NCBI GenBank assembly: GCA_050008535.1
Contig: JBEKML010000001.1
Location: 66,246-130,245, forward strand
Direction of reading: 5' to 3'
DNA from: Minisyncoccia bacterium
GTDB lineage: Bacteria; Patescibacteriota; Minisyncoccia; UBA6257; 2-01-FULL-56-20
Length of the DNA stretch: 64,000 nt
Shown here: in pieces, positions 13,400-56,452 of the stretch
How positions within the stretch are numbered: position 1 is the first letter of the stretch
Layout: each line of letters starts with the position of its first letter
Position numbers and translations under genes: made by a program
The notes under the pieces: generated by a model
What the model saw: only the letters and a program-made list of their open reading frames with translations
Told to the model about the DNA's origin: nothing
Database searches by the model: none

Positions 13400-13465
13400 G
13401 GCAAAGAAAAAGGGTTTCAGATCGAGTACTAAGAAGGGCTCTCTCTGAAACCCTTTTTCTTTGCC
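13400..13465. repeat. hairpin repeat copy A (core in reverse orientation at 13424-13441)
   Basis: The 22-bp perfect inverted arms ggcaaagaaaaagggtttcaga/tctgaaaccctttttctttgcc flank tc-GAGTACTAAGAAGGGCTC-tc. Confidence 0.8.
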
Positions 13466-13669
13466 TTTTGGCACTCACGGGGAATTGAACGAGGGGGGAG
13501 GGGGCAGTCTGACCCCTCCGTGTAGGAGGGTCGCGCGCTTCGCGCGACAGTGCGCGCACCCTAGGTGTCGCAAGCGCAGGCCGGTCTTACCCGGCCGAGC
13601 AGTGAGATCCCTCGCAAAGCCAATAAGCTTAATGAGCGGGAAATAGGCGTGATTTGTTATAATAAAAAA

Positions 13670-13933
13670 ATGAAATCAAGAATCGGGTTGATCCTTGTCG
13701 TTTTATATATTTTGTTCGTAGGCTATCTTTGGTTTGCTGAATTGTCTTGCACTGGTTGGGGGTGTGGCTACTCGCTGATACTGGCGATAATGCCCTGGCC
13801 GCTTGTTCTGGAAGGCACAGCTCAGTTTTCAATCCCGTTATTTATTATTTTGTTTTTATTGAATGCCACTATTTTATATTTCATCGGACTGGGACTTTCT
13901 AAAATCTTCCGTCAAGACCGCGGAGTTTTGTAA
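13670..13933 (+). CDS. small membrane hypothetical protein
   Basis: The hydrophobic ORF is called from the internal ATG at 13670. The ORF track begins at a GTG at 13565. This call is weak. Confidence 0.25.
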   Translation: MKSRIGLILVVLYILFVGYLWFAELSCTGWGCGYSLILAIMPWPLVLEGTAQFSIPLFIILFLLNATILYFIGLGLSKIFRQDRGVL

Positions 13934-14031
13934 AGAATCTCAAAACGCTTCCGAAGAATGTTTGTGGGGTCTCACTCATAAAGGTCTGAGGCCTTGGAAG
14001 GGCGCAGCTTCATTGGTGGTATAATTAAACT

Positions 14032-14580
14032 ATGAAAAAAATAATGGTTAGCTTGCTGTTTTTGCTGCCAGCGGTCGTTTTTCTGCAGGGAGCTCGGGCG
14101 GCCAAAACAATGCCGTCGTCAACCTCCGGTGTTGTTTCTGATCAGAAGGCCGCGGCGACGGGAAGCGTGATCGTGGTTTCTCCTCGAATCACGTCATTTC
14201 TTGAAAATCTTGCAAAAACCAATCCGTCCCAATCGGTTCAAGTTATTATTGAAGTATCCAACGCGCAACGTCAGGACGTCCTCCAGCTTGCGGAGTCTCT
14301 TGGGGGTAAACTTACCACCGATAACCCCCTGTATAATAATCCTCGTTTGCCATTATTTATTACCATTCCGGCAGGCAAGCTTCTTGATCTTGTGGCCTCG
14401 AAATATGACTTCGCCATTTCCGAGAATGGAATTGGTTCCGTCGCACAGGCAACGTCTGCGGAAAATCAATACCAGACAACGCCAGAAAAGGGCTGGAGCG
14501 GAACCGCAGGAATCGCCTCCGCCGTTGGAGCGATTGTTTTGATTTATCTGATATATAGGGTTGCAAACAAAAAACGTTAA
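14032..14580 (+). CDS. exported protein with C-terminal TM anchor and basic tail
   Basis: Signal peptide MKKIMVSLLFLLPAVVFLQGARA. C-terminal GAIVLIYLIYRVANKKR. Confidence 0.55.
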   Translation: MKKIMVSLLFLLPAVVFLQGARAAKTMPSSTSGVVSDQKAAATGSVIVVSPRITSFLENLAKTNPSQSVQVIIEVSNAQRQDVLQLAESLGGKLTTDNPLYNNPRLPLFITIPAGKLLDLVASKYDFAISENGIGSVAQATSAENQYQTTPEKGWSGTAGIASAVGAIVLIYLIYRVANKKR

Positions 14581-14589
14581 GCGGCGCCG

Positions 14590-15348
14590 CTACTTTGCGC
14601 TCAATAAACCGTCGATCACCGACTGGAAATTTGCATACGGTTGGGCGCCCATAATTTGCCTCCCGTTGATGAAGAATACCGGGGTGGAATTTACTCCCGC
14701 AGCGGACGCGCTTGCCTTTTCCTGGGCGACCTGGCTCGCATATTTATTGGCATCAATACAAGTCGTGAATGCCGGAATGTCCAGGCCGAGCTGCTGGGCA
14801 AGTTTAAGGAAAAGCGTCCGATTCAAACTGCCGTCGTTTTCGCTGCCGCCCTTCTGTTCATCCTGAACTTTCGCCTGATATAAAGCACCGTGATAAGCCC
14901 ATGCTTGATTCTGATCCGCGGCGCACTCCGCTGCCTCTGTCGCAGCCGTTGATTCGGGGCCTAAGAACGGAAAGCTTCTGAAGACCATTTTCATCTTCCC
15001 AGAATCCACGTATTTCTTGATAAGAAGCGGCTGGGTTTGTGAAAAATACTGCACACAAAACGGACATTGGTAATCGCCGTACTCAATAAAGGTAATTGGA
15101 GCGTTGGCGTTCCCAAGAACGGCATCGCGCGGGCTTAAAGCCATGATGTTTACCGTACTTGTCGGAGCTGCAGCCTGCGGCTGCTGCGCGGCGGGCGAAG
15201 GCGTTACTGTTCCTCCTTTATAAAATACCGTGAAGAGGATCGACCCTGAGATAAGGACTGCGGCAACAAGGATGCTGATCGGCAAAAACCGAGATTCGAT
15301 TGGTTGGTGATTTTGTTCCATGCGTTCCATGATATCATGCCGACACAT
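14590..15348 (-). CDS. DsbA-like thiol:disulfide oxidoreductase (thioredoxin fold, membrane-anchored)
   Basis: N-terminal TM segment. CPFC active site within YGDYQCPFCVQY. The exact start codon is uncertain. Confidence 0.75.
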   Translation of the reverse strand: MCRHDIMERMEQNHQPIESRFLPISILVAAVLISGSILFTVFYKGGTVTPSPAAQQPQAAAPTSTVNIMALSPRDAVLGNANAPITFIEYGDYQCPFCVQYFSQTQPLLIKKYVDSGKMKMVFRSFPFLGPESTAATEAAECAADQNQAWAYHGALYQAKVQDEQKGGSENDGSLNRTLFLKLAQQLGLDIPAFTTCIDANKYASQVAQEKASASAAGVNSTPVFFINGRQIMGAQPYANFQSVIDGLLSAK

Positions 15349-15413
15349 TGCGTCAAACGATTTACGAGGATATTGAAAATGGGAAGAAGTGGCGTATAAT
15401 AGGAAGCGTTATC

Positions 15414-15485
15414 GCGGGTATCGTATAGCGGCTATTATGCGACCTTGCCAAGGTCGAGATACGGGTTCGACTCCCGTTACCCGCT
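15414..15485 (+). tRNA. tRNA-Gly (GCC)
   Basis: Acceptor stem gcgggta/tacccgc. Anticodon stem cgacc/ggtcg with loop ttGCCaa. T-arm acggg-TTCGACT-cccgt. Confidence 0.7.
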
Positions 15486-16075
15486 CAAAGATCAAACGAG
15501 CGTCCAATAGTTTTTCTCTTAAATGTTGCCCCTGGCTTTATTTTCAGAAACCCCAGATTTGCTTTTCTAGCACCTTTGTAATCGTTTCCGCCATCAGCAA
15601 TCACAATACAGTCTCCAAATTTCTTCTTTATTTTCCGAAACGGGATCCCCGTTCTTTTTGAAAACCGGCACTGATTTTTTGTTATCGAATTTTCTATATC
15701 AAAATACTTTCGTATGCCAAGTCTATCAAGTACATACTGGGTTTCTTTTTCTTGCCCACCAGTAGCATAAATAAATCGGCAGTTATTTTTATTCGCCTTA
15801 ATCCAATCAACAATGGGATATCGTTGTGGTTGTGGCAGTTTTTTCTCAAGCACGCTTTTCTCAAACGCCCGGTTATACCATCGCCAATATACCGCCTTGG
15901 TTAATTTCTGCCCGGTCGCTTTTGTAAAAATCATATAAGTATCCGAGATCCCAGACATCTTCAATCCTTCGAATCTTTTTTCATATCTCCTGTTTGTCAT
16001 GCGCAAAAGCACCGATTTTTCAATCGGCCACATGTTGGTGAGCGTTCCATCGATGTCGAATATAATTGATTTCAT
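15485..16075 (-). CDS. HAD-superfamily hydrolase
   Basis: Motif I FDIDGTLT at the N-terminus. The gene is AT-rich and abuts the 3' end of tRNA-Gly. Confidence 0.65.
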   Translation of the reverse strand: MKSIIFDIDGTLTNMWPIEKSVLLRMTNRRYEKRFEGLKMSGISDTYMIFTKATGQKLTKAVYWRWYNRAFEKSVLEKKLPQPQRYPIVDWIKANKNNCRFIYATGGQEKETQYVLDRLGIRKYFDIENSITKNQCRFSKRTGIPFRKIKKKFGDCIVIADGGNDYKGARKANLGFLKIKPGATFKRKTIGRSFDL

Positions 16076-16129
16076 TTTTATTGAATTGAGAGGCCCGCAC
16101 CGTAATAAGATACGGGCCTCGATTTGTAG

Positions 16130-17134
16130 TCACCAGCTTGGCATGAGCGGCCCATGTAGCGCACTGTCGTTTATGACCTCGGCGTCTTCCCGTTCCCATA
16201 GGACGTATCCAGTGACGGGGGTTGCCCCACACGAAAGGATGACCACTTGGCACGCTTTTTTGTCCAGCGTTGCCGGGTGAATCATTTGCTGTGCAATGAG
16301 GGAGTTTCGGTTGTAGCACTGGCGGGCGAATCGACCGCCCCGGACATCCCGTTGGTACAAAACACTTTTGCCGGCACGGAGATGATCAGCGCTGTACTTT
16401 TCCGCGAATTTCAGGACGGTGCCGCTGAAGTCGGACTTCATCCAATTCGCCACGTGTTCCCATGGTACTTCGGGTGCATACCAACAGAGCGGGGTGTTGA
16501 CGCACCGAGTACGGCCTCCTTTGATGTCCCACTCGGTGCTGCGGGAAAACTGCGCAAGCCGCATCTTGTTCTCGATTTCGTACCCATAGGCAGGAACGAT
16601 GTTGGGGAGTTCTTCTGGTCGATCCCATCCGTAGTAATACATCGGGTCTCGATCGTCTCGAGGCTCGCCCGGCAAAAAAGATTCGACTTTCTTGCCAAGA
16701 TTCCTCAACTCCTGAAGCGTTAAGAGGAACTCATCATAGTACGCGTTGTTTGAGCTTGGCAGGTGCCAGGCTTGCGGTAGTTTTTCCCCGATAAGTTCCC
16801 CGCCTACAGGAAACCCGCACGCGCGGCAAAGATTGAGCGCCGTGCCCCAGCCGTCCACAAAGCGGGCGTTTACCTCGAGGACGATAAGTCTGTCCATCGC
16901 CTCCGAGATGAAGGCATCGGTCCGAAGATATATCCCCGGTTCGCAGAATCCGTCTTTCCTGAAGCCGCAAAAGCTCAGAAACTCGCCGAGGAAAAATTCG
17001 AGGCCTCGCATAATTTCGCCGCTCATGATCACGCCCAGGCCGCCTACCTTGTATGGTCTCCCGCGGTAGAGCGATCGGGGCAATAGGTCACGGTTTAGGT
17101 TGAACTCACGCCAATACATCTGCTGATTCGGCAT
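16130..17134 (-). CDS. hypothetical enzyme, possibly ATP-grasp-like
   Basis: Called from the internal Met MPNQQMYW at 17134, which avoids overlap with the TrpR-like gene. The segment RLIVLEVNARF faintly resembles an ATP-grasp motif. Confidence 0.4.
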   Translation of the reverse strand: MPNQQMYWREFNLNRDLLPRSLYRGRPYKVGGLGVIMSGEIMRGLEFFLGEFLSFCGFRKDGFCEPGIYLRTDAFISEAMDRLIVLEVNARFVDGWGTALNLCRACGFPVGGELIGEKLPQAWHLPSSNNAYYDEFLLTLQELRNLGKKVESFLPGEPRDDRDPMYYYGWDRPEELPNIVPAYGYEIENKMRLAQFSRSTEWDIKGGRTRCVNTPLCWYAPEVPWEHVANWMKSDFSGTVLKFAEKYSADHLRAGKSVLYQRDVRGGRFARQCYNRNSLIAQQMIHPATLDKKACQVVILSCGATPVTGYVLWEREDAEVINDSALHGPLMPSW

Positions 17135-17231
17135 GGTTTTCAAAGAACTCCTACTCTCCCGCCCGGAAATTGAAACGGCCCTTCCGGGAAGGGCTTGATC
17201 GGCAAGTGCGCGCGGCACAACCAAACCCTTC

Positions 17232-17528
17232 CTACAAGGGGATGGCGTGATGATGAAGCTTGCTGATGATGGCTCTGTATCCTCCTTCGTCGCCGTTAAG
17301 CCATTTTGAAACCCGAGCAACCGTTGTGGAGCTGAAACCGGTTTTTTTCTCGATTTCAGAATACGGCACTTTTTGCGATAGTAATTCGGCGGCCTCAAAC
17401 CGCTTTGCGAAATCCTCGATTTCTCTTTTAGTCATAAGATCCCGCAAAAACCTCCTGGCTTCGTTTGCCGTTTCGAGCGCCAAGATGGCTTGGATCAGGC
17501 GGCTCTTTTCCTTATTATTCCAGTCCAT
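17232..17528 (-). CDS. TrpR-like DNA-binding protein (YerC/YecD family)
   Basis: About 98 aa. KKTGFSSTTVARVSKWLNG is an HTH typical of the YerC/YecD family. Confidence 0.65.
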   Translation of the reverse strand: MDWNNKEKSRLIQAILALETANEARRFLRDLMTKREIEDFAKRFEAAELLSQKVPYSEIEKKTGFSSTTVARVSKWLNGDEGGYRAIISKLHHHAIPL

Positions 17529-17668
17529 ACGGGCACTTTAGCAAAGTAAAGTGGCAAAGTCAAGCCCGGGGCCGCAGCGATCTGTTTCGTCCTTTTGGAC
17601 TCGTCGGGCGAGATACGCATCTCACGACAGAGAGGGTTTTAGAGGTCCCTCAAACTCGCCGGGGTGGT

Positions 17669-17935
17669 TCATCCGTAGATCAGCTTGTACGCCAACACCG
17701 ACGACGAAAAAACGAAGGTGATGACGTTGGCGATGACTATCGGACGAGAACGGAGAATGCCCCCGTAGATGGCCCAGAGAAAGGTCCCCAGAGAAAGGAT
17801 GATGAACGTCCATAGGGAAACGTCTGTGGCCGGCTTCGGGGCATGGCTCCACGTCACGTAAATCTGCGGGACAAATGCTGCAGTGGTAAGGCAGCCGGCG
17901 ATCGTCCCTATCGCCTCTGTCACTCTCTTGTTCAT
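17669..17935 (-). CDS. SemiSWEET / PQ-loop sugar transporter (88 aa)
   Basis: Three TM helices with the PQ motif in AAFVPQIYVTW. The 45-aa N-terminal extension in the ORF track is a translation of hairpin copy B and was excluded. Confidence 0.6.
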   Translation of the reverse strand: MNKRVTEAIGTIAGCLTTAAFVPQIYVTWSHAPKPATDVSLWTFIILSLGTFLWAIYGGILRSRPIVIANVITFVFSSSVLAYKLIYG

Positions 17936-18019
17936 CGCAATTCTCCTCTCTTCTCGCTGGCTGTGTTTTATCACATATGAGCTCATGTTGTCAATTGTTT
18001 TAAAATTAATCGCCCATAG

Positions 18020-18089
18020 GCCAGCAAGAAGACCCTGTTTGAAAAGAGCCCTTCTTAGTACTCTTTTCAAACAGGGTCTTCTTGCTGGC
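18020..18089. repeat. hairpin repeat copy B (core forward at 18046-18063)
   Basis: The 26-bp perfect arms gccagcaagaagaccctgtttgaaaa/ttttcaaacagggtcttcttgctggc directly flank GAGCCCTTCTTAGTACTC. Confidence 0.85.
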
Positions 18090-18207
18090 TCATTCGATTA
18101 GAGGTATACTGTAACTAATAGCAAAATGCCCTTATCGAGAGGGCATTTTGCTTGAAGAGGGAGTATTGGAACCCCCTTGTAACCAGAGTCATTCTATTAC
18201 GTTCTCT

Positions 18208-18753
18208 ATGTTAGACGGTGAGCAAAAACTCATAAAAGACGCCGTCCAGGGTAAATCCTCGGCGTTCGGCCCCCTTTACGACCACTACCAACCGATGATC
18301 TATCGGTTCGTGTTCGTGAAAGTGGGCAGACGTGAGGATGCCGAGGATATTACCCACCAGGTCTTCCTTGCGGCGTGGCAGAACATCGGGAGCTACAAGC
18401 ACCGCGGGCATCCGTTCTCAAGCTGGCTCTACCAGATCGCGCGCAACCAGGTGGTTGACCACTATCGCGCGAAGAAGAGCGAGGTCAGTTTGGAAAAAAT
18501 GGATCCGGAATATTTCGTCGCTCCTGCAACCGCCCATTTTGATCTTTCAACAAAGCTTGAAATGGAAAAGGTGCGCGTTGCGATCGCCGGGCTGAAACCC
18601 GACTATCAGGACGTAATCGTTCTGCGATTCATTGAAGACCTGCCACTGAAGGAAGCCGCTCACGTATTAGAAAAGTCCGAGGGTGCCGTGAAGCTCATGC
18701 AGCATCGGGCGATCAAAGAACTGCAGCGGATGTTAGAGCAACAAAAGAATTAA
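18208..18753 (+). CDS. ECF-type sigma-70 family sigma factor
   Basis: Region 2 reads ITHQVFLAAWQNIGSY. Region 4 reads LKEAAHVLEKSEGAVKLMQHRAIKEL. Start taken at the internal Met MLDGEQ at 18208. Confidence 0.8.
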   Translation: MLDGEQKLIKDAVQGKSSAFGPLYDHYQPMIYRFVFVKVGRREDAEDITHQVFLAAWQNIGSYKHRGHPFSSWLYQIARNQVVDHYRAKKSEVSLEKMDPEYFVAPATAHFDLSTKLEMEKVRVAIAGLKPDYQDVIVLRFIEDLPLKEAAHVLEKSEGAVKLMQHRAIKELQRMLEQQKN

Positions 18754-18756
18754 TCC

Positions 18757-19233
18757 ATGAATCTTTTTCAAATCCTCAAACAATTTAAAAACATAGAGCC
18801 GGATCCCGCGTTCAAGGAAACTTCCCGTCGGGCGATTTTAGCGTACAGGCCCGTGGCGCCCACGACGCATCTTTGGAGCGCACAGCGGACGCTTTGGAGG
18901 ATCATTGAAACGGGCGCTGCGGTGGCGCTCACCGGGTTTTTTGTACTCCTTATCACCGGAGCGTTCTCCGGTTCAAGGTTCGTCCCCGTTCAATATTCAG
19001 CCGTTGACCCCCAAAGTTTGCATGCGGAAGCCCAAGCAATCGACATTCAGATCCAGCTCGCGAATGTAACCTATGCGGAATCGGCGGTAGAATCCACTGT
19101 GCAGACCGCAGGGGGAAAGCTGCTGGGCAACCCAAAAAAGGCATCTTCTACCGCTCTCTCGGCAGCCAGGGGAACCACAGAAGCAACCTCAACGATAACC
19201 ATCGACCAAGCGCTTCAGGGACTCTCCCAGTAA
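18757..19233 (+). CDS. putative anti-sigma factor / single-TM protein
   Basis: It begins 3 nt after the sigma gene. Central TM segment AAVALTGFFVLLITGAF. Confidence 0.45.
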   Translation: MNLFQILKQFKNIEPDPAFKETSRRAILAYRPVAPTTHLWSAQRTLWRIIETGAAVALTGFFVLLITGAFSGSRFVPVQYSAVDPQSLHAEAQAIDIQIQLANVTYAESAVESTVQTAGGKLLGNPKKASSTALSAARGTTEATSTITIDQALQGLSQ

Positions 19234-19240
19234 CCCTATT

Positions 19241-19999
19241 GTGAAAAACCCACGAACCGTTTTTATCGTGTTCTTTCTCTTGCTCCCGCCGCTCGCGGGA
19301 ATTTTCCTTGGTTCCGTAAACACGGCGCGGGCCGCCGACAACTGCATCATCACCTCGTCCGATCTTGATGCCGTAACGGCAGCGGCGGCACAGGGACTTA
19401 TGGCGGAACTCGCCGCGCGGAGAGCACTCCTTACAAGAACGATTGCGTGCGCCAAAGCCGAAGCCCAATCGCTCCAAAACAATCTGAACGGCCTTTCGGT
19501 GAGCGACGACGAAAAAACGATCCGCGCGCAACTTTCAGATAGGTTGAATGACGCGATGAACTATTACGATCTTGAACTTGAGAAGGTCGGCGGCGCGGGC
19601 ATCACGGGGACCCAAATCATCGCAAAAGAGGTGTTTGCGTGGCGCGGAAACAATTACAACTTCCTTGCGGCGCAGGTGGCGAACTTCACCCTCTGGGTAA
19701 AAAGCCAAAATCTTTTTGAAACTGCTCTGGCTCGTCTCCGTTCCGTAGAAAGCATTGTCTCATTCCTTGAACAGGCCGGGGCCCAGAACGAACTGCGAAG
19801 CAATCTTGCAAGCGCCCAGGTCCTGGTTCAGGCCGCACGCAATAAAAACGATTCGGCGAGGAATGCCTTTCTCCAATCGCTCCCGCCGGACCAGACGCTC
19901 GCCCTCATCCAGCAATCGCTCCAATCCCTCTCGGATGCCTATCAAAAATTCTTTGACATAAGCACCGTCGTCCAGACGCTCCTGCCCATAAAGCCGTAA
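19241..19999 (+). CDS. secreted hypothetical protein
   Basis: Signal peptide, then a coiled-coil-like region rich in Ala, Gln and Leu. Confidence 0.55.
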   Translation: MKNPRTVFIVFFLLLPPLAGIFLGSVNTARAADNCIITSSDLDAVTAAAAQGLMAELAARRALLTRTIACAKAEAQSLQNNLNGLSVSDDEKTIRAQLSDRLNDAMNYYDLELEKVGGAGITGTQIIAKEVFAWRGNNYNFLAAQVANFTLWVKSQNLFETALARLRSVESIVSFLEQAGAQNELRSNLASAQVLVQAARNKNDSARNAFLQSLPPDQTLALIQQSLQSLSDAYQKFFDISTVVQTLLPIKP

Positions 20000-20003
20000 C
20001 AAG

Positions 20004-20036
20004 AAAGACCCCGCAACCGGCGGGGTCTTTCTTTGC
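20004..20036. terminator. Rho-independent terminator, usable in both directions
   Basis: 11-bp GC-rich stem aaagaccccgc/gcggggtcttt with a T-run after it. It lies between convergent genes (19241-19999 on + and hup on -). Confidence 0.7.
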
Positions 20037-20069
20037 AAACTTTTAGAGTAAAGGATCCTTTGCTTGCTC

Positions 20070-20345
20070 CTACAATACCGCTTCTTTGAGCAGCTTCCCT
20101 GCGCGGAACTTCGGCTTCACGGATGCCTTGATCTGTATCTTCTCGCCCGTTTTGGGGTTCCGGCCTTCGCGCGCAGCGCGCTTTGCCACACGGAACGTAC
20201 CGAAGCCCGTGATCGCCACCTCTTCGCCGTGGCTCATCGTCTTCACGATCGTGTCAAAAACGGCTTCTACTACCCGCTCCGCCGCTACCTTTGTCTCAAT
20301 CTCCGCGGCCTTCATCACAGCCTCAACCAATCCTTTTTTATTCAT
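20070..20345 (-). CDS. hup: DNA-binding protein HU
   Basis: 90 aa with GFGTFRV and RNPKTGE motifs. Confidence 0.9.
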   Translation of the reverse strand: MNKKGLVEAVMKAAEIETKVAAERVVEAVFDTIVKTMSHGEEVAITGFGTFRVAKRAAREGRNPKTGEKIQIKASVKPKFRAGKLLKEAVL

Positions 20346-20425
20346 TGATGATGGTTACGTTTTCCCGACCTTTGATATCAGTTCCCCATTAGTATAGCAA
20401 ATACAGGGGGAAAGAAGCAAAACGC

Positions 20426-20451
20426 AAAAGGCCCCCTCGCGGGGGCCTTTT
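20426..20451 (-). terminator. Rho-independent terminator after the large surface-protein gene
   Basis: Stem aaaaggccccc/gggggcctttt with a 4-nt loop. It has a T-run on the minus strand and an A-run on the plus strand. Confidence 0.7.
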
Positions 20452-20497
20452 GGTTTCCGCTCCGTCACAAGCGGAGGGAAAGTTCGTTCCCTATTCG

Positions 20498-24597: not shown

Positions 24598-25254
24598 TTA
24601 CCCCGCCGGAGCTCTGGGGATATCTTGTTTTACCCTGTAAAACACAGAAGGGCCACCGCCTCCTATTCTTTCTACGAGGCTTTGTTCGAGAAGGGCCTGG
24701 AGATCATATCTGATCGTCCTTTCACTGCAATCCGGAAAAAGTTCCTGTATATCTTTAATCCGGCAATTGCCGGATTGCCGGATTTTCTCTAAAATTGCCG
24801 CTTGCCGAGCTGTAGCTCTTTCGCCGCCATTCCCTTCGTTGCTATCAACCTCAGCGGTAGTCTCAATTTCTTTTGCCGGTTGTCTTTGCCGCTTTGCCGT
24901 ATGGTTTGCCGGAAACAATTCCCCGTGTCCAGAAAAAATATCGTCTAAAAAGACTTCCTCTGTGTTTACAGCTTTCTCTGGTCCGGCAATTGCCGCATTC
25001 ATCGATGCAAGCTGTGAAATGATAATTTCTTTATTCGCTTCATGGATCAACCCAACGTCCCCGCCAAATCTCACCAAGTACTCAATCGCCCTGGAAACCG
25101 TGCTCACCCATGCATAATTCTCTACCGTTGCCGCATCTAAAAGCGACAAGGCCTGGCGCTCAAGGTGCTCTTTTAGAGGGCTGCTTGCCGTCCGGGACCC
25201 GATCCGGAAAACCGCATAGCTGATTTCGTAGGCCTTCTTCAGAACAAACTGCAT
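24598..25254 (-). CDS. DeoR-type HTH transcriptional regulator with four-helix-bundle-like N-domain
   Basis: C-terminal DeoR HTH ERTIRYDLQALLEQSLVERIGGG. Start taken at MQFVL (25254). The track extends it to 25302 over motif repeats. Confidence 0.55.
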   Translation of the reverse strand: MQFVLKKAYEISYAVFRIGSRTASSPLKEHLERQALSLLDAATVENYAWVSTVSRAIEYLVRFGGDVGLIHEANKEIIISQLASMNAAIAGPEKAVNTEEVFLDDIFSGHGELFPANHTAKRQRQPAKEIETTAEVDSNEGNGGERATARQAAILEKIRQSGNCRIKDIQELFPDCSERTIRYDLQALLEQSLVERIGGGGPSVFYRVKQDIPRAPAG

Positions 25255-25316
25255 TTTGCCGGATTCCTTCATACGGCAAAGCATAATCCGGCAATGCGGC
25301 ATTCGTCAAGGTGCTA

Positions 25317-25386
25317 GGAGCAGGGAGAAGATGCTTTGAAATGAGCCCTTCTTAGTACTCATTTCAAAGCATCTTCTCCCTGCTCC
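25317..25386. repeat. hairpin repeat copy C (core forward at 25343-25360)
   Basis: The 26-bp perfect arms ggagcagggagaagatgctttgaaat/atttcaaagcatcttctccctgctcc directly flank GAGCCCTTCTTAGTACTC. Confidence 0.85.
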
Positions 25387-25403: not shown

Positions 25404-26201
25404 TTACTTCTTTTGGAGAATTTTTTCCGCCTCTTGCAGTTTCTCTAACGTTCCGCAGTCTAGGCGGCGGCCGGGGAATTCCCATCCGTAAAGCTTCTTT
25501 TTGAGAACCAGGTCGATCTGCAGGGCAACCGCGAGGGGTAGGGCATCGTCCGCGACGACCGGGAGGGTATCCGCAACTATCTTTAGATTCCTCAGAATGT
25601 CGGGCGTGAGCACATATCCCCCGACGATTATAAGGTTAGAGGGCGCATCTTTCTTCTTTGGCTTCTCGATAATTTTTTTTATCTGGTATATCTTCCCGCC
25701 CCAAAAAGAACGGTACTTCCTCGTTTTTTTGAACCCGATCACTCCGAACCGTGAAACTTTGTTCTTTGGTACGCGCTCAAGGAGCACAATGGACGCCCGG
25801 TAACGGTCAAAAAGATCGAGCAAGCCGCGAAGAGCGGGGGGGTCCCCTAAAAGAATATCGTCGCAGAAACGTACCGCAAAAGGCTCATTTTCCACGATAT
25901 CATAGGCCTTTGTAAGAGCGTGACCGTTCCCGCCCGGCGTTTCCTGTACCCTTATAGAGAAAGTAAGGGTGGGAAATTTTTTCTGGTTCTTTTTTATATA
26001 TGCCCCAAAATCCTCACGATGTTTCGGGCTCACAATAAGCACTACCTCCTTTATCCCACAAGAAACCGCTTCTTCTAGTACGTATTCCAAGAGCGGTCTT
26101 CCATTCACCGGAATAAGGTTTTTAGGCATACGCTTGGTGAGGGGAAGTAGCCGCTTTCCCAGCCCAGCGATTGGCAGTATCAACTTAGTTACTCTAGGCA
26201 C
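25404..26201 (-). CDS. sugar-phosphate nucleotidyltransferase (GalU/RmlA-like)
   Basis: N-terminal LILPIAGLGKRLLPLTKRMPKNLIPV matches the NTP_transferase G-x-G-x-R-L motif. Confidence 0.75.
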   Translation of the reverse strand: MPRVTKLILPIAGLGKRLLPLTKRMPKNLIPVNGRPLLEYVLEEAVSCGIKEVVLIVSPKHREDFGAYIKKNQKKFPTLTFSIRVQETPGGNGHALTKAYDIVENEPFAVRFCDDILLGDPPALRGLLDLFDRYRASIVLLERVPKNKVSRFGVIGFKKTRKYRSFWGGKIYQIKKIIEKPKKKDAPSNLIIVGGYVLTPDILRNLKIVADTLPVVADDALPLAVALQIDLVLKKKLYGWEFPGRRLDCGTLEKLQEAEKILQKK

Positions 26202-46609: not shown

Positions 46610-46631
46610 CGCGATGCGTTACCACTAGACC

Positions 46632-47651: not shown

Positions 47652-47668
47652 GATTCCGCAATATTATG

Positions 47669-48058: not shown

Positions 48059-48086
48059 GTTAATGCAATAATATCACGGAACGCCG

Positions 48087-48416: not shown

Positions 48417-48429
48417 TTCTTTTATTCTA

Positions 48430-48966: not shown

Positions 48967-48978
48967 GCGTGATGGTCT

Positions 48979-49770: not shown

Positions 49771-49786
49771 TTAGTTAAGTTGCTCT

Positions 49787-50380: not shown

Positions 50381-50387
50381 ATCTGTA

Positions 50388-51671
50388 TTATCGCATAAGT
50401 TGCGTTACGGCGGCTTCCGCCTCTTTGAGCGCCCTTACGGAGTCCTCCGCGCCGGTCAAAACATTCTTGATCGCGGTATCGAAGATGGCATCTATCCTTG
50501 CAGCGTCGGCTTCGTGCCATGACCGTGCCGTAAGCGCCTGCAGAGCGAAAACGGAAAGGTTGGGATCATTCGCATCGCCCTGGATCACGGTGCGGAGAGC
50601 GGGCGGTTTCCCCGTGGCATTCTGGTATGCCGTCGCATTTGCAGGGACGGTCGTCAAATAAAGGATGAGGTTCCATGCCACGGCCGCCTGCCCCGTCCGC
50701 GCCGCCACGAAACCGTCGTAGTTTGGATAATTCACCGCAACGCTCGCGCCTTTGGCCTGCGGCACCGGCGCAATGCCAATGTTAAGGAACGGCGCCTTTG
50801 CCCTTATCTTTGCAAAATCCGACTGATAGGCGAAAATGATCGCCGTCTTCCCGGCAACGAAACTATCAACGGCGTTCCCCATCGCGTCGTTCCAGGCGTA
50901 GTACGGCGAGGCGGCATTCGCGAACTGGAGGTAAAAATTGAACGCGCCAATGCCCGTCGCGCCGCTATCCTGCCCTGCAAAGGTTGCCGCGGTATTGCCG
51001 TCGTTCGTCATCTGCGTCCCATTCTGAAGCATAAGGAGAGAAAGAATGTCCGGCGCGTGGGGGACGCCCGCAAGCGACCCGCCGATCGCCGCTGCGGCCT
51101 GTGTCAATTTACCTTGCGCATCCACTGCGCGGAGCCGCACGACATCCGCATCAAAGTCGTCCCATGTTTTTGGGAGGATCGCGATGCCGGCAGAGTTCAG
51201 GAGGTCCTTGTTGTACACCATGACAAGCGTGTCAATGGAAAGCGGGAGTCCGTAGATCTGCCCGTTTGAAGTGAAATCCCGCGCCACAACATCCGGGAAT
51301 TCGCTCTGAAGCGCAAGGAAGTTGAATTGCGTTGACGAGGTGGGGAACGGCGCAACGGCCGACTTCCACTTCGGCAGATCGCGGTTGTTTATTTCAAACA
51401 CGTCGGGGCCCGTGCCTGCCGCGAGCGCGGAAAGGAGCCGGCTCGCGTAATTCGCGGCGTCAACCTCCACGTAATTTATTTTGCCGTACGGATAGGACGC
51501 AAGAATGCTTCCGAGCACTGTGCTGTTTTCCGTGCCCCAAACCGTAAGCGTGACCGCGGGGCCCGTATTTGTTTTTGGTCGCAGCCCCCAAAAGATAAGG
51601 AAGAAAATGACGATCACAAGAACCGCCCCGCCGATGATGATAGTGACCTGTTTTTGGGAAAATTTTGGCAT
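50388..51671 (-). CDS. extracellular solute-binding protein (ABC transporter SBP family 1-like), N-terminally anchored
   Basis: TM anchor, then TLTVWGTE...GPDVFEIN, which is typical of sugar-type SBPs. Confidence 0.7.
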   Translation of the reverse strand: MPKFSQKQVTIIIGGAVLVIVIFFLIFWGLRPKTNTGPAVTLTVWGTENSTVLGSILASYPYGKINYVEVDAANYASRLLSALAAGTGPDVFEINNRDLPKWKSAVAPFPTSSTQFNFLALQSEFPDVVARDFTSNGQIYGLPLSIDTLVMVYNKDLLNSAGIAILPKTWDDFDADVVRLRAVDAQGKLTQAAAAIGGSLAGVPHAPDILSLLMLQNGTQMTNDGNTAATFAGQDSGATGIGAFNFYLQFANAASPYYAWNDAMGNAVDSFVAGKTAIIFAYQSDFAKIRAKAPFLNIGIAPVPQAKGASVAVNYPNYDGFVAARTGQAAVAWNLILYLTTVPANATAYQNATGKPPALRTVIQGDANDPNLSVFALQALTARSWHEADAARIDAIFDTAIKNVLTGAEDSVRALKEAEAAVTQLMR

Positions 51672-51675
51672 CGTG

Positions 51676-54105
51676 CTAAATGACGACAGTCCCCGCCAGG
51701 CGGTCGCCGCCCTTAAGGTTCATGATGTGGACGCCTTGCGCCGCGCGGCCGGTCGTACGCACTGTTTCGAGCTTCGTACGAATCATCTGGCCTTTTGCAG
51801 AAAGCGCGAAAAGCTCTTTCTCTTCGGTCACGACATGCGCCGAAAGCAGCATCCCCGTCTTCTGGGTTACCTCCGCCGTCTTGATCCCGGAGCCGCCGCG
51901 GCTTTGCGTCTTGTATTCTTTAAGCGCCGTCTGCTTCGCAAAACCGTTCTCCATGACGACGAGAAGCTTTGCTTCTCCTCCTTTGATTATATCAAAGCCC
52001 GCAACCTCGTCGTTCTGTTTTTTAAGCTTGATCGCGCGGACGCCTGCGGCCGTGCGGCCCATCGGACGCACCTGTTTTTCTTCAAAACGGATGGATTGCC
52101 CCTGCCGCGTGGCCAAGATCACCTGGTCTCCGCCGCCCGTGAGCTTCGCCCACTTCAAGTGGTCCCCTTTCTTTAGGGAAATTGCGATGATGCCCGTCCG
52201 GCGGATGGCGAGAAACTCCTCAAGCGGCGTCTTTTTGACCACGCCGTGCCTTGTCACCATCATAAGATATTTTTTCTTCTCGCCCTTCGCGGAATAGTTC
52301 ACGATCGCGCTCACGGTTTCGTCCGCCGGGAGTTCCAGGAAGTTCTGAATCGCCTTGCCCTTCGCGGTGCGCGTCGCCTGCGGGATCTCGTACACCTTTG
52401 TCTGGAACACGCGCCCGCGATTTGTGAAGAACAAAACATTGTCGTGCGTCCGCGCGCTGAAGAAATGCGAGAGGAAATCCTCTTCCGCCACTTCCGAACC
52501 GATCAATCCCTTCCCGCCGCGCTTTTGCACTTTGAAGGTGCTCGGCGGCAGGCGTTTGATGTAACCGCCGCCCGAGACCGTCACGATCGCATCCTCGTCC
52601 ACAATAAGATCTTCGTCGCTCACCGCGGCGATCCCGTGCGCCACCACCTGCGTCCGCCGTTCGTCACCGTATTTTTCCTTCAATGCATGGACTTCATCCT
52701 TGATGATCTTTAGGATCTTTGCAGGGCTCTTTAAAATGAGCGTGAGTTCTTCAATAAGCGCCTTTTTTTCTTTCAATTCCGCTTCTATCTTTTGGTGCTC
52801 AAGCGCCGCGAGCGTTTGCAGGCGCATTTCCAAAATCGCCGTCGCCTGCACGTCGCTCAATTTAAATTGTTTTACAAGGTTCACGTGCGCCTCTTCTTTG
52901 TCCTTCGATTTCTTGATCGTCGCGATCACGCGATCAATGGCGTTCAGAGCTTTCGCAAGCCCTTCCAGGATGTGTGCACGCTCCTCGGCTTTCTTAAGAT
53001 CGAACTGCGTGCGGCGTTTCACCACCTCTTTCCGATACGCCAAATACTCAACAAGGATATCCCGCAGGGAAAGGAGCCGCGGCTCAAGACCGTGCTCGCT
53101 CGCAACAAGCGCGGTCATGTTCATATTGAAATTCTTCTCAAGATCGGTGTGCTTGTAGAGCCAGTTCAGCACCTTTTGTGGCGATACGTCGTTCTTGAGC
53201 TCTATCACAATACGCATCCCTTCGCGGTCCGATTCGTCGCGCAGGTCGCGGATGCCCTCAATTTTCTTTTCCTGCGCTAATTCGGCGATCATCCGCACGA
53301 GCTCCGCCTTATTCACCTGGTACGGGATCTCGGTCACCACAATGTCGAACTGCTTGCCGGCCTTATTTTCCACGATCTCCGCCCTCGCGCGCGTGAGGAT
53401 CGCTCCGCGCCCCGAAACGTAGGCCTCTTTGATCGCTTTTGTGTCATAAATGATGCCGCCCTTCGGAAAATCCGGGCCCTTCACGAATTGCAAAAGGTCC
53501 TCGCTGGTCGCATCCGAATTATCCGAAAGATGCAGGATCGCGTCCGCGATCTCGCCCAGATTGTGGGTGGGGATGCTCGTCGCCATGCCGACCGCGATGC
53601 CCAAAGCGCCGTTCAAAAGAAGATTGGGCAGCTTTGCGGGAAATACCATCGGCTCTTCCCGCGTCGCGTCGTAATTCGGCATCCAATCAACCGTTTCTTT
53701 TTCAATATCAAAAAGCAGTTCCTCCGCGATCGCCGACATTTTCGCCTCCGTGTACCGCATCGCGGCCGGCGAATCCCCGTCCATGGAACCGAAGTTTCCC
53801 TGTCCGTGCACGAGCGGATAACGCAAAGAAAAATCCTGGGCCATGCGCACCAGCGTGTCATAGATCGCCGAGTCGCCGTGAGGGTGGTATTTCGCCATCG
53901 TCTCGCCCACGACGTTCGCCGACTTCCTGAACTTCGCGAGATGCGTAAGGCCCGCATCCCACATCGCCCACAGGACCCGCCGGTGCACCGGCTTCATCCC
54001 GTCGCGCACATCGGGCAGCGCGCGCGCGATGATAACCGACATCGCATAATCAAGGTAGGATTCGCTAAGCTCTTTGGTAATTTCCCTCTTTTCCAAATTG
54101 GGCAT
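51676..54105 (-). CDS. gyrA: DNA gyrase subunit A
   Basis: Active-site AAMRYTEAKM with catalytic Tyr. The QRDR region VGETMAKYHPHGDSAIYDTLVRMAQDF. C-terminal beta-pinwheel repeats. Confidence 0.93.
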   Translation of the reverse strand: MPNLEKREITKELSESYLDYAMSVIIARALPDVRDGMKPVHRRVLWAMWDAGLTHLAKFRKSANVVGETMAKYHPHGDSAIYDTLVRMAQDFSLRYPLVHGQGNFGSMDGDSPAAMRYTEAKMSAIAEELLFDIEKETVDWMPNYDATREEPMVFPAKLPNLLLNGALGIAVGMATSIPTHNLGEIADAILHLSDNSDATSEDLLQFVKGPDFPKGGIIYDTKAIKEAYVSGRGAILTRARAEIVENKAGKQFDIVVTEIPYQVNKAELVRMIAELAQEKKIEGIRDLRDESDREGMRIVIELKNDVSPQKVLNWLYKHTDLEKNFNMNMTALVASEHGLEPRLLSLRDILVEYLAYRKEVVKRRTQFDLKKAEERAHILEGLAKALNAIDRVIATIKKSKDKEEAHVNLVKQFKLSDVQATAILEMRLQTLAALEHQKIEAELKEKKALIEELTLILKSPAKILKIIKDEVHALKEKYGDERRTQVVAHGIAAVSDEDLIVDEDAIVTVSGGGYIKRLPPSTFKVQKRGGKGLIGSEVAEEDFLSHFFSARTHDNVLFFTNRGRVFQTKVYEIPQATRTAKGKAIQNFLELPADETVSAIVNYSAKGEKKKYLMMVTRHGVVKKTPLEEFLAIRRTGIIAISLKKGDHLKWAKLTGGGDQVILATRQGQSIRFEEKQVRPMGRTAAGVRAIKLKKQNDEVAGFDIIKGGEAKLLVVMENGFAKQTALKEYKTQSRGGSGIKTAEVTQKTGMLLSAHVVTEEKELFALSAKGQMIRTKLETVRTTGRAAQGVHIMNLKGGDRLAGTVVI

Positions 54106-54106
54106 G

Positions 54107-54412
54107 TTAGTGCGGCGGTTTTATTAAATATTCGCGCGGCGCCTGCAGGATGTTCCCCAAGCCATGAAGGGTGCCTATGATCCCCTGGTACATGTTCTGC
54201 CAGATGCTCACGCCGTAAGAGGGCTGGGGCGTGGACGATGAAACTTCCACCGGCTGCGAAACTCCCGCAACGAGGTTATTGAAATACGCAAGCCAAATAT
54301 AGATCACGACAACCATGGCGATCGCGGTCGTGATGATAAGCACTCTCTTTTTGGTCGGCTCGTCGAGCGATTGAAGCTCTTCGAGGAAACCCCTTCTTTG
54401 TTCCCGTGGCAT
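54107..54412 (-). CDS. small single-TM hypothetical protein
   Basis: It begins 2 nt after gyrA ends and has one TM helix. Confidence 0.45.
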   Translation of the reverse strand: MPREQRRGFLEELQSLDEPTKKRVLIITTAIAMVVVIYIWLAYFNNLVAGVSQPVEVSSSTPQPSYGVSIWQNMYQGIIGTLHGLGNILQAPREYLIKPPH

Positions 54413-54421
54413 TGGTGCGGA

Positions 54422-54997
54422 TTAGCTCTCGCTTAGAACGACCGGCCGCCCTTTGTCGCCCATAATATCCTTCTGCTTGAAGACGAATTTCTCCGCTTTC
54501 TCGGCCTTCTTGCCAAGCGCCTTCAAGAACTCATCCGGGCTCTTCGCAAAGCTCGGTACGATAATTCTCGCCTCAAGTTGTTTTGCGATCTTTGCCGCGA
54601 CTTCCGGCTCCAGAAAATGCCCGCCGCCTACGGGGAGAACAAGGAGGTCCGGCTCCAAAAGTTCCTCCATAAGCGCAGCATCGATCGGCTTCGAAAGATG
54701 CCCCAAGAAGACAAATTTCATTTCCTCCCAATAGACCACGTAGACCGTTTTCAAGAATTTTTCCGTAGATTCGCCCGCGATCGGAAATCCAAGGATTTCT
54801 ATCCCTTTTATTTCATATTCTCCGGGAAAAGCGATCTCAAGGGAATCGTCCGCTTCGCGCGCGAGCGGATTTTCCACCGCGACGAGGGTTTTTAACACAA
54901 CATCCGCCTTGAGGCGGTTGTTCTCCGGGTTCACGAGGATCGAGGTCTCCCCGCTTTGCAGCCGAAAGGCCCCGTTTCCAAAATAGGTGAGGACCAT
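54422..54997 (-). CDS. MBL-fold metal-dependent hydrolase-like protein (UPF0173-like, short)
   Basis: The N-terminus MVLTYFGNGAFRLQSGETSILVNP resembles the start of UPF0173 hydrolases. Confidence 0.4.
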   Translation of the reverse strand: MVLTYFGNGAFRLQSGETSILVNPENNRLKADVVLKTLVAVENPLAREADDSLEIAFPGEYEIKGIEILGFPIAGESTEKFLKTVYVVYWEEMKFVFLGHLSKPIDAALMEELLEPDLLVLPVGGGHFLEPEVAAKIAKQLEARIIVPSFAKSPDEFLKALGKKAEKAEKFVFKQKDIMGDKGRPVVLSES

Positions 54998-55085
54998 ATA
55001 CGCTCATTTTACCAAAAAAACGGCGCGAAAACAAGCGCGCGGCGCCCCTTGCCATACGTTTATTTTTCCTCTATAGTCACCCCTA

Positions 55086-56168
55086 ATGCCTCAAACAGAC
55101 ACGAATATCGCACAGGTTCTGAAGATCGAGCTTTCGTCCGCGGACTGGCCGAAGGAAGGGAGTGTTGTTGAAGTGACACTCATGAAAAAGGTGCCGCGGA
55201 AGGCCTACTTCGACATGGGCCGCTTCGGCACGGGCATCGTCTACGGCGCGGAAACAACGAACGCCAAGGAGATCCTCCGCAACCTGAATCCCGGCGACAA
55301 ATTACACGCGAAGATCATCGCTCTGGACGGCGAAGAGGGAAATATAGAGCTTTCATTGTCGGAGGCGGGCAAACAAAAACTCTGGCAGCAGGCAAAAGAG
55401 CTCGCGGAAACAGGAGAGGTCGTGAAAGCAAAGATTGTCGGCGCAAATGCAGGCGGACTTATGACTGCCGTTTCCGAAGAGCTCAAGGCGTTCCTCCCGG
55501 TTTCGCAACTTTCTCTTGAACACTATCCAAAAGTGCCCGACGGCGATCGCACGAAGATCGCCGAGGAACTTAAAAAATTCATCGGCGAAGAGCTCTCGGT
55601 GAAGATTATTGACGTAAATCCCCGCACCAACAAGATCATCGTCTCGGAGCGCGAAGTGCTCTCGGCGAACGTAAAAGAGCTGCTCGCCGCCTATGCCGTG
55701 GGGCAGGTGGTGGATTGCATCGTCTCGGGCGCAGCCGATTTCGGCATTTTCGTCCGGTTCACCGATAATCCGCAGATCGAAGGCATGATCCACATCTCGG
55801 AACTGGACTATAAACTGATCGATAATCCCAAAGAGCTCGTGAAGGTGAATGATCAGCTGAAAGCGAAGATCGTGGACATCAAAGAAGGCCGCGTTTTTCT
55901 CTCCTTGAAAGCGCTTAAGGAAGATCCATGGACAAAGCTCGGCGATAAATGGAAGCCCGGCGATGTCGTGCAGGGCCGCGTGTACAAGTTCAATCCGTTC
56001 GGCGCGGTGGTGGCGCTCGAGGATGATCTCCAGGGCGTGGTGCACATCTCCGAATTCGGTGGCGCCGACGAAATGAAGAAGGCGCTCGCCGTAGGCGAGA
56101 CCTATCCCTTTGTCATTGATGCCGTGAAAACAGAGGAGAAGAGGATCATGCTGAAGGTAAAGAAATAG
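55086..56168 (+). CDS. ribosomal protein S1-like protein with four S1 domains
   Basis: Repeated S1 OB-fold units, for example GDVVQGRVYKFNPFGAVVAL. Confidence 0.85.
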   Translation: MPQTDTNIAQVLKIELSSADWPKEGSVVEVTLMKKVPRKAYFDMGRFGTGIVYGAETTNAKEILRNLNPGDKLHAKIIALDGEEGNIELSLSEAGKQKLWQQAKELAETGEVVKAKIVGANAGGLMTAVSEELKAFLPVSQLSLEHYPKVPDGDRTKIAEELKKFIGEELSVKIIDVNPRTNKIIVSEREVLSANVKELLAAYAVGQVVDCIVSGAADFGIFVRFTDNPQIEGMIHISELDYKLIDNPKELVKVNDQLKAKIVDIKEGRVFLSLKALKEDPWTKLGDKWKPGDVVQGRVYKFNPFGAVVALEDDLQGVVHISEFGGADEMKKALAVGETYPFVIDAVKTEEKRIMLKVKK

Positions 56169-56238
56169 ACACGAAGCATATACCTTTTGAAACGAGTACT
56201 CAGAAGGGCTCGTTTCAAAAGGTATATGCTTCGTGTCT
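56167..56238. repeat. hairpin repeat copy D (core in reverse orientation at 56194-56211, G-variant)
   Basis: The 27-bp perfect arms agacacgaagcatataccttttgaaac/gtttcaaaaggtatatgcttcgtgtct flank GAGTACTCAGAAGGGCTC. The element starts within the stop codon of the S1 gene. Confidence 0.85.
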
Positions 56239-56300
56239 GCAACTTGTTTCCGATTGAGAAACGCGATAAGATAAAACCGCTTCTTTAACAAGGAGTGGAT

Positions 56301-56372
56301 GCCGCGGTAGCTCAGTGGCAGAGCGCAGCCCTGAAGAGGCTGGCGTCGGGTGTTCGATTCACCCCCGCGGCA
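56301..56372 (+). tRNA. tRNA-Phe (GAA)
   Basis: Acceptor stem gccgcgg/ccgcggc. Anticodon stem cagcc/ggctg with loop ctGAAga. T-arm gggtg-TTCGATT-caccc. Confidence 0.8.
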
Positions 56373-56384
56373 CACAACAAGCAA

Positions 56385-56452
56385 GGACAAAACAAAGATG
56401 GCTTGGGGAGAGCCCTTCTGAGTACTCTCTCCAAGCCATCTTTGTTTTGTCC
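56385..56452. repeat. hairpin repeat copy E (core forward at 56410-56427, G-variant)
   Basis: The 25-bp arms ggacaaaacaaagatggcttgggga/tctccaagccatctttgttttgtcc carry one G/A mismatch, which would be a G-U pair in RNA. They flank GAGCCCTTCTGAGTACTC. Confidence 0.8.

Follow-up and report, generated by a model that had tools for sequence, protein, structure and literature searches.

What are the five long hairpins in a 64-kb stretch of a Minisyncoccia genome, and why do all of them carry the same tip? The stretch (64,000 nucleotides of contig JBEKML010000001.1, assembly GCA_050008535.1, positions 66,246 to 130,245; hereafter the window) comes from a bacterium of the class Minisyncoccia in the phylum Minisyncoccota (Patescibacteria, or candidate phyla radiation). 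Patescibacteria are uncultivated, and little is known of how they end, process or stabilise their transcripts. Each of the hairpins is built around the 18-mer GAGCCCTTCTKAGTACTC. From sequence analysis, we put at about one half the probability that the copies are palindromic two-way intrinsic-terminator or 3'-end hairpins whose tip hosts a dispersed, exchangeable 34-nt cassette, probably read by a trans-acting factor. The predicted role of the hairpin is most likely to end and protect transcripts.

Five hairpins built around one tip

The 18-mer occurs at exactly five sites in the window, the same set being returned with up to two mismatches, and at none in 100 shuffled windows (expected 0, observed 5); the five copies reported in a sequence-only reading of this DNA were thereby confirmed (Table 1). 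These sites are also the five longest inverted repeats of the window, each with arms of 28-30 nt around a 12-nt loop, and a covariance model of the family (R1) found no copies in the window beyond them. Their predicted RNA folds have energies between -45 and -60 kcal/mol and z-scores between -8 and -13.7 relative to shuffled sequences. Four copies had been described as perfect; three are (copies 2, 3, and 4), whereas copy 5 contains a single mismatch (G.T on one strand, A.C on the other) and copy 1 two neighbouring mismatches beside the tip. Of the two palindromes ascribed to the core, AGTACT stands, but GAGTACTC is confined to the copies with K=G, those with K=T containing only AGTACT.

The hairpins are real, because independent JGI, ENA, and Logan contigs reproduce them exactly. 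That they are chimeric palindromes produced by assembly or amplification has a practically negligible probability: two short-read Logan contigs do end inside the 12-nt loop of copy 4 (L130 at window position 56214 and L131 at 56205), and palindromes disturb assemblers, but identical hairpins are present in independent JGI, ENA, NCBI, and Logan assemblies of several samples, and the conserved asymmetric loop recurs in many unrelated genomes. Palindromes of this kind interrupt de Bruijn assemblies, so fragmented assemblies probably yield too low a count of the family. Contigs encoding identical neighbouring proteins were all 99.9-100% identical to the window, hairpins included, with no strain-level difference in presence or absence.

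Copies from the wider collection were aligned without gaps on the tip (alignment A2), giving 32 proposed pairs. Standard pairs fill 96.6% of the cells in these pairs, compared with 42-54% when the partner column is slid; 27 of the 32 pairs are altered on both sides, and none of 500 shuffles reaches the observed pairing. This bears out the view of a diverged family in which pairing is kept while the arms change. The repeated unit is nevertheless smaller than the ~70-nt hairpin originally proposed. It is a 34-nt palindromic cassette, TTTGRAAnGAG-TACTMAGAAGGG-CTCn'TTYCAAA, of which the central 16 bases are invariant, because conservation ends abruptly rather than in a smooth gradient: information is 1.4-2.0 bits per column at columns 23-26 (TTTG) and 31-47, and 0.2 bits at column 22. 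Columns 27-30 are variable yet paired; the outer stem columns reach at most 0.8 bits and the tip 2 bits. Copies 2, 3, and 4 of the window have the same 34 nt bar one base pair on unrelated outer arms, and two copies from one genome (L109 and L111, both on L117) likewise have a common cassette and unrelated arms. The arms are therefore almost entirely different, as had been noted, only outside the cassette; their inner 11 bp are part of the conserved unit.

The cassette brings the stem to 28-30 bp and adjoins a short G+C clamp. Beyond it only composition is kept: across 25 copies, the outer 5' arm contains 173 A and 36 T, with A exceeding T in 22 (p = 1.6e-4), and the 3' side is T-rich. The purine-rich left arm seen in the window is thus a general feature of the family.

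Terminator-like arms, genomic position, and proposed tip exchange

The variable arms look like terminator arms that were already present. The hairpins combine the two elements of an intrinsic terminator, a stable stem-loop (folding energies as above) and a U-rich tract, the outer 3' arm being T-rich in 22 of the 25 copies, and this U-tract lies within the extended stem itself. Plain palindromic terminators of these genomes are also perfect extended palindromes, among them two in the window and one after the S1 gene in L120 (Table 1). Two objections raised earlier lose their force in this light. The remark that the copies are not consistently followed by T-runs is misleading, since the T-rich tract is the outer 3' arm itself, as in palindromic two-way terminators; and the stems, said to be longer than those of terminators, are not different in kind, given the terminator polarity of the outer arms and the equally extended perfect palindromes of the plain terminators.

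Most copies are located close to gene or tRNA 3' ends. In the window, copy 3 starts 18 nt past the stop codon of an NTP-transferase (nucleotidyltransferase) gene and ends 15 nt ahead of an open reading frame (ORF) with a DeoR-type helix-turn-helix (HTH) domain, the base of copy 4 overlaps the TAG stop codon of a ribosomal protein S1-like gene, and copy 5 lies 4 nt past the 3' end of tRNA-Pro(tgg) and 12 nt past that of the convergent tRNA-Phe. These three copies and most of those elsewhere are 0-40 nt past a stop codon or tRNA end. The product of the S1-like gene matches, at 100% identity, a protein on a 535-kb contig that NCBI assigns to a Minisyncoccia bacterium. Copy 1 sits between a degenerate tRNA-like remnant (5') and a structured RNA that we call X (3'), and copy 2 in a divergent intergenic region, 55 nt upstream of the ORF of an ECF-type (extracytoplasmic function) sigma factor. 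Most copies in the collection follow protein genes rather than tRNAs. Even so, 10 of 26 begin 0-4 nt past a tRNA 3' end (P ~1e-4 if tRNAs make up 10% of genes), and the tRNA genes preceding hairpins encode no CCA.

The orientation of the tip follows its neighbours. Nine of the ten tRNA-adjacent copies, the exception being L055, read GAGUACUMAGAAGGGCUC (core UACUMAGAAGGG) on the tRNA strand; among the copies with an unambiguous neighbour gene, about 16 have the favoured orientation and about 4 the opposite one (an approximate tally from an ORF-based table). In the favoured orientation, the tip is ~2 kcal/mol more stable and gains a U.G pair. Copies 4 and 5 are 200 nt apart on opposite strands and each is oriented with its own gene, so the bias tracks transcription and not replication. 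This suggests recognition in RNA, and the earlier candidate of a structured RNA with a recognised apical loop is plausible in view of the invariant tip and the shared orientation of the tRNA-adjacent copies. When read in the favoured orientation, the inner stems have five A.C pairs (G.U on the other strand) and none of G.U, and are otherwise purely Watson-Crick; on this sequence pattern, a DNA-level or two-strand constraint would fit as well as selection at the level of RNA.

Relatives differ in what they carry at the same sites. Five syntenic relatives, whose S1 protein is 84-92% and coding DNA 75-85% identical to that of the window, have no copies in 128 kb. In L122, the hairpin of the orthologous tRNA-Pro/tRNA-Phe spacer has the outer stem of copy 5 (AAAGATGGC/GCCATCTTT) and a different 32-nt tip, TTCTGCCTCCTGCGAGGACGAAGTCGGCAGAG. 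A second tip family, F2, with a tip of approximately CCTCSYGCGARGRCGARKTCGG, forms long hairpins in L122 and L124; in L122 it holds, in the same sense orientation, the sites orthologous to those of the window's family (F1) behind the S1 gene and behind tRNA-Pro, and F2 hairpins also stand upstream of the S1 gene in both L122 and L124. One genome can carry both families, because L124 belongs to the same 899-kb chromosome (OY970175) as the F1-bearing L065. In L055, where the surroundings of tRNA-Arg(gcg), tRNA-Gly, and the sigma factor gene show synteny with the window, an F1 hairpin directly follows tRNA-Arg; its outer arm resembles that of copy 1, and its tip, including the asymmetric mismatch, is flipped. 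Other long perfect hairpins with large asymmetric tips occur in L102 (family F3), L026, and L062, and the sense-strand tips of F1, F3 in L102, and the L026 hairpin contain a common purine-rich UAAGAA/GAAG stretch.

Genome contigs were scanned with one genome per species and a shortened motif of 15 bases, and most of the at least 101 matches are due to chance. Stem lengths among the genome-contig matches listed are bimodal, at least eight being of 25-33 bp and the rest of 6 bp or less. The long-stem matches come from Minisyncoccia, Paceibacterota, Saccharibacteria, and records labelled 'uncultured bacterium', with four on one 588-kb contig and one on the 899-kb chromosome. A metagenome scan added 18 loci. 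In total, the collection holds at least 26 distinct copies from at least eight Patescibacteria assemblies, 25 from the scans and the 26th from the covariance model. In ~450 kb searched with that model, the only variant tip was one with a single A-to-G change (L002), and no decayed copies were found, though the arms are saturated with change; on these sequences, the lack of decay suggests that the tip is either under purifying selection or continually homogenised. The exact 18-mer is absent from the viral contigs of IMG/VR. Searches of the window and L065 against Rfam 15, in both gathering and E-value modes, passed only tRNAs at gathering thresholds, the sub-threshold E-value matches being microRNA-precursor shapes (16-36 bits, against thresholds of 46-200); the hairpins thus match no Rfam family. 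A literature search on the loop sequence and on terminator, hairpin or non-coding RNA motifs in Patescibacteria returned nothing relevant, the sequence matching miR-506 only.

The X RNA and other neighbouring features

The RNA directly 3' of copy 1, X, accompanies the hairpin family without belonging to it. A conserved X is present in eight loci, each time immediately 3' of a co-oriented tRNA gene: tRNA-Glu three times, tRNA-Gln, tRNA-Val, tRNA-Arg(tcg), tRNA-Pro (with a partial X), and the remnant in the window. In five loci an F1 hairpin stands between tRNA and X; in L102 its place is taken by an F3 hairpin and in L126 by a plain spacer of 14 nt. In the helix that closes X, the 3' strand directly copies the 3' strands of the tRNA's T-stem and acceptor stem and the 5' strand is their complement; both co-vary with tRNA identity (Glu, Gln, Val, and Arg). 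X has four internal hairpins and 19 compensatory or covarying pairs, with CCGAGCAGTGAGAT invariant, and its U.G pairs assign it to the tRNA strand. Neither Rfam nor ARAGORN gave a match, and none of transfer-messenger RNA, signal recognition particle RNA, RNase P RNA, 6S RNA, 5S RNA or a T-box fits. X is predicted to be a newly described structured RNA that is linked to tRNAs and mimics them.

The remnant 5' of copy 1 ends in AATTCCCTCAAGGGCACA, which resembles the 3' end of tRNA-Arg(tcg) in L102, and differs from real tRNAs by an insertion/deletion of ~20 nt. Possibly it is the 3' portion of a tRNA, displaced to the far end of a ~13-kb island that separates tRNA-Arg(gcg) from copy 1. This block, probably an integrated element because it is absent between tRNA-Arg and tRNA-Gly of the syntenic L055, opens with a large serine recombinase (Resolvase, Recombinase, and zinc-ribbon domains) that abuts tRNA-Arg(gcg), and further encodes HTH_36/DnaD-like and HTH_3 proteins, a DNA methylase, and large proteins. 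One public gene caller left the recombinase region uncalled.

Near copy 2, a small perfect palindrome resembling a terminator, AGCAAAATGCCCT-TATCGAG-AGGGCATTTTGCT, lies 30 nt past the hairpin. Because it overlaps the first listed codons of the sigma factor ORF, the true start of that ORF is probably further downstream. The gyrA-like gene of the window is a single ORF of 809 amino acids; its counterpart in the closest relative, L120 (DNA_topoisoIV domain), contains an intein-splicing domain and is split into several calls. Upstream of gyrA, in a region syntenic with ~47-51 kb of the window, all the relatives (L120, L122, L124, L125, and L126) have a conserved array of five to eight small genes that match T4SS_pilin (PF18895).

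Table 1. Coordinates of the hairpins, neighbouring genes, and other features. Positions are those of the window unless a locus is given; R1 is the covariance-model score.
Feature	Position	Strand	Inverted-repeat arms (complementarity)	18-mer (strand)	Cassette	R1 (bits)	Details
Hairpin copy 1	13399..13466	+	13399-13426 / 13439-13466 (28 nt, 93%)	13424-13441 (-)	13416-13449	79.3	+ strand tip GAGTACTAAGAAGGGCTC
Hairpin copy 2	18020..18089	-	18020-18048 / 18061-18089 (29 nt, 100%)	18046-18063 (+)	18038-18071	83.4	- strand reads GAGTACTAAGAAGGGCTC
Hairpin copy 3	25317..25386	-	25317-25345 / 25358-25386 (29 nt, 100%)	25343-25360 (+)	25335-25368	86.7	flanking genes' transcript reads UACUAAGAAGGG
Hairpin copy 4	56167..56238	+	56167-56196 / 56209-56238 (30 nt, 100%)	56194-56211 (-)	56186-56219	82.6	transcript reads UACUCAGAAGGG
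Hairpin copy 5	56385..56452	-	56385-56412 / 56425-56452 (28 nt, 96%)	56410-56427 (+)	56402-56435	81.6	tRNA-Pro strand reads UACUCAGAAGGG
Variant-tip hairpin	L002 4656-4730
F2 hairpins	L122 11080-11141, 11302-11367, 9883-9956; L124 9890-9949
F3 hairpin	L102 5342-5414
Other long perfect hairpins	L026 3120-3194; L062 2002-2072
Plain terminator	20001-20033						AAGAAAGACCCCGC-AACCG-GCGGGGTCTTTCTT
Plain terminator	20416-20461						perfect extended palindrome
Plain terminator after S1 gene							in L120; ACAAATAGGCC-GAAG-GGCCTTTTTTGTTTGT
Terminator-like palindrome	18120-18152
tRNA-like remnant	13322..13397	+					degenerate; directly 5' of copy 1; not called by ARAGORN or Rfam
X RNA	13466..13629	+					~165 nt, structured; directly 3' of copy 1
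X RNA, other loci	L065 3661-3828; L108 5491-5654; L060 3259-3427; L021 1086-1248; L126 15743-15888
X RNA, other locus	L102 5336-5180	-
X RNA, partial	L126 13136-13074
Large serine recombinase ORF	365-2017	-
tRNA-Arg(gcg)	385-459
~13-kb block	~460-13300
Sigma factor ORF (ECF-type)	18148-18753
DeoR-HTH ORF	24598-25302	-
NTP-transferase gene	25404-26201	-
T4SS_pilin genes	relatives ~1000-5200 (syntenic with ~47-51 kb)
gyrA-like gene	51676-54105
gyrA-like gene of L120	L120 6362-8308
S1-like gene	55086-56168	+
tRNA-Phe	56301-56373	+
tRNA-Pro(tgg)	56456-56527	-

Candidate explanations and known systems

Were the copies terminator or 3'-end hairpins, the hairpin would act in RNA by ending and/or protecting the upstream transcript, and past CCA-less tRNA genes RNase Z would cut it free as a separate trailer. 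A trans-acting factor could recognise the asymmetric, invariant tip (sense GAGUACUMAGAAGGGCUC) along with the UUUG/CAAA box that lies one helical turn lower. The cassette would move between terminator tips by copying at the DNA level, either through insertion into hairpin loops or through templated conversion, and the arms might stay perfect through the known template-switch process of quasi-palindrome correction and/or through the need to pair on both strands. A further step, which we take only tentatively, would make the cassette a new kind of module at the tips of Patescibacteria terminators: the smallest known mobile palindrome that homes into loops and/or an RNA docking site for a lineage-specific factor whose targets would be transcript 3' ends or the tRNA trailers that RNase Z sets free, with F1, F2, and F3 competing for the same terminators.

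Several observations weigh against the terminator reading. A terminator is unexpected in divergent 5' regions, the location of copy 2 and probably of L109; past the stem, a U-run is missing in three of the five copies of the window; and a minority of copies have the tip in the opposite orientation. In five loci, the hairpin separates a tRNA from a co-oriented X and leaves no space for a promoter, so termination at the hairpin cannot be complete there. With no G.U and five A.C pairs in the favoured orientation, the wobble pattern lends no support to RNA-level selection in that orientation. Exchange of the tip is deduced from one clear and one probable orthologous pair, and no candidate for the binding protein or for a mobilising enzyme was found.

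The same facts can be read differently. It seems to us rather unlikely, though not implausible, that the cassette is a selfish miniature palindrome similar to repetitive extragenic palindromic (REP) sequences or miniature inverted-repeat transposable elements (MITEs), which homes into terminator tips as neutral havens and whose tip is a transposase or nuclease site without an RNA function. Such an element would account for the lineage-specific numbers (five per 64 kb here, none per 128 kb in the syntenic relatives), the sharp cassette boundary on unrelated arms, the different tip of the L122 ortholog, the flip between the probable orthologs L055 and copy 1, the like behaviour of F2 with both families on OY970175, and the Watson-Crick-only pairs. 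Against it, no consistent flanking direct repeat was apparent as a target-site duplication on inspection of the window copies, and there were no solo left or right cassette halves, no larger parent element in any locus, and no decayed copies despite the saturated arms. Nor does a transposase, RAYT or HUH gene adjoin any copy; in 20 ORFs from the island and the surroundings of copies 1-3, Pfam scanning turned up the large serine recombinase, a DNA methylase, and HTH proteins, with no transposase or Rep, and a RAYT (Y1 HUH transposase) is absent from the scanned window ORFs and the gene tables. The orientation of copies 4 and 5 by local transcription argues against a replication-strand bias, and 34 nt is far under known MITE size. 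Of the earlier suggestion of a REP/MITE-like element, the dispersed repeat stands, with the 34-nt cassette and not the ~70-nt hairpin as its unit, whereas recognition hairpins for an IS200/IS605-type enzyme find no support, given the lack of an adjoining HUH or transposase gene, of solo half-sites, and of a larger element.

It is improbable that each hairpin is a discrete RNA gene of ~70 nt, freed by RNase Z (and by an RNase P-like cut at X), with a loop that docks a protein and a stem that is an RNase III substrate or guide-like part. This would explain why ten loci start 0-4 nt past the discriminator base of CCA-less tRNA genes and why, in five, the hairpin lies exactly between two RNAs with tRNA-type ends; a perfect duplex of 28-30 bp also exceeds the roughly 20 bp that RNase III needs. 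Most copies, however, follow protein genes, and the composition of the stem is dictated by terminator polarity. No match to the stems was found elsewhere in the window (with four mismatches allowed) or in 50,697 phage records, so we rejected a guide or spacer role for the arms. More improbable still is a site that works in DNA, in which a hairpin or cruciform presents the 12-nt loop to an HUH endonuclease (Rep, relaxase or Y1 transposase) or the arms form a small invertible segment. A conserved loop on a variable stem follows the logic of rolling-circle origins, and the loop TACTAAGAA appears to resemble the pMV158-type nick sequence TACTACGAC; both tip orientations occur, L055 being flipped relative to copy 1, and pairing is Watson-Crick only. 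Against this, no Rep, relaxase or HUH domain was present in the scanned ORFs around the copies or in the gene tables, viral contigs gave no matches, orientation tracks transcription, and we know of no precedent for tens of origin-like sites in a 0.5-Mb genome. Likenesses of the tip to lambda boxB, the sarcin-ricin loop, a K-turn or anti-Shine-Dalgarno pairing are partial, and we claim none.

The family is a concrete handle on transcript ends in these bacteria. It points to an RNA- or DNA-binding factor, and its covariance model could map transcript ends across thousands of metagenome-assembled genomes. If tips are indeed exchanged between terminators, repeats would have a new way to spread, using hairpin loops as safe havens, and quasi-palindrome maintenance would gain an example in nature. 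Also exposed at these loci is the undescribed X RNA, whose closing helix mimics the acceptor and T-stem of its neighbouring tRNA.

Among known systems, the REP sequences of proteobacteria, with the composite elements BIME (bacterial interspersed mosaic elements) and REPIN (REP doublets forming hairpins), are likewise dispersed extragenic hairpins at 3' ends and between cistrons, of lineage-specific copy number, plausibly stabilising or terminating transcripts and plausibly mobilised in trans. Their organisation is the reverse: in REPs the stem, with its GTAG, is conserved and the loop or spacer varies, whereas here the tip is conserved (2 bits), the outer stem varies (at most 0.8 bits), and no GTAG is found at the stem base. 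The taxon (Minisyncoccota) is another, and no RAYT gene was seen in the scanned ORFs or gene tables. MITEs such as Correia, RUP, and Nezha are also non-coding, intergenic palindromic repeats without an ORF, and the cassette has 11-bp inverted ends as they do. It differs in being 34 nt long and always central in a unique longer palindrome, with no consistent flanking repeat or target-site duplication, solo ends, larger element or parent insertion sequence found.

In integron attC sites and HUH Rep hairpin origins, structure plus a short motif defines the family and the stem sequence is otherwise free, as it is here. Both are recognised as folded single strands. attC sites conserve the base of the stem (R/L boxes, GTTRRRY) and have extrahelical bases, neither of which is present here, where the tip rather than the base is conserved, the stems are perfect, and there is no integrase-cassette context. 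Rep origins have a rep gene as neighbour and a stem of 9-11 bp; the perfect stems here are of 28-30 bp, no HUH domain was found near the copies, and there were no viral-contig matches, which also sets them apart from IS200/IS605 hairpins. A tRNA-then-hairpin architecture is mentioned for murine gammaherpesvirus 68 in one account (PMC6667617). As in the tRNA-adjacent copies, its TMERs (tRNA-pre-microRNA transcripts) have a long hairpin directly after a tRNA-type element, although they belong to a eukaryotic virus that relies on RNA polymerase III and Dicer, whereas most copies here follow protein genes and no small-RNA machinery is implicated. In the TMERs, tRNA 3' processing reportedly frees the hairpin.

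The closest likeness in build is to bidirectional, palindromic intrinsic terminators, which have the same A-rich 5' arm, G+C clamp, and U-rich 3' arm with a U-tract on either strand, occupy the 3' ends of genes and tRNAs and the space between convergent genes, and are represented by plain examples in the same genomes. The hairpins described here depart from them in their stem of 28-30 bp (compared with ~5-15 bp), in the location of some copies in 5' regions or between co-transcribed RNAs, and in a tip that is a 34-nt family cassette with 16 invariant nucleotides in place of an arbitrary tetra- or pentaloop. Relative to extragenic palindromes and intrinsic terminators, what is new is the organisation of a conserved tip on a free stem, together with the evidence of tip exchange.

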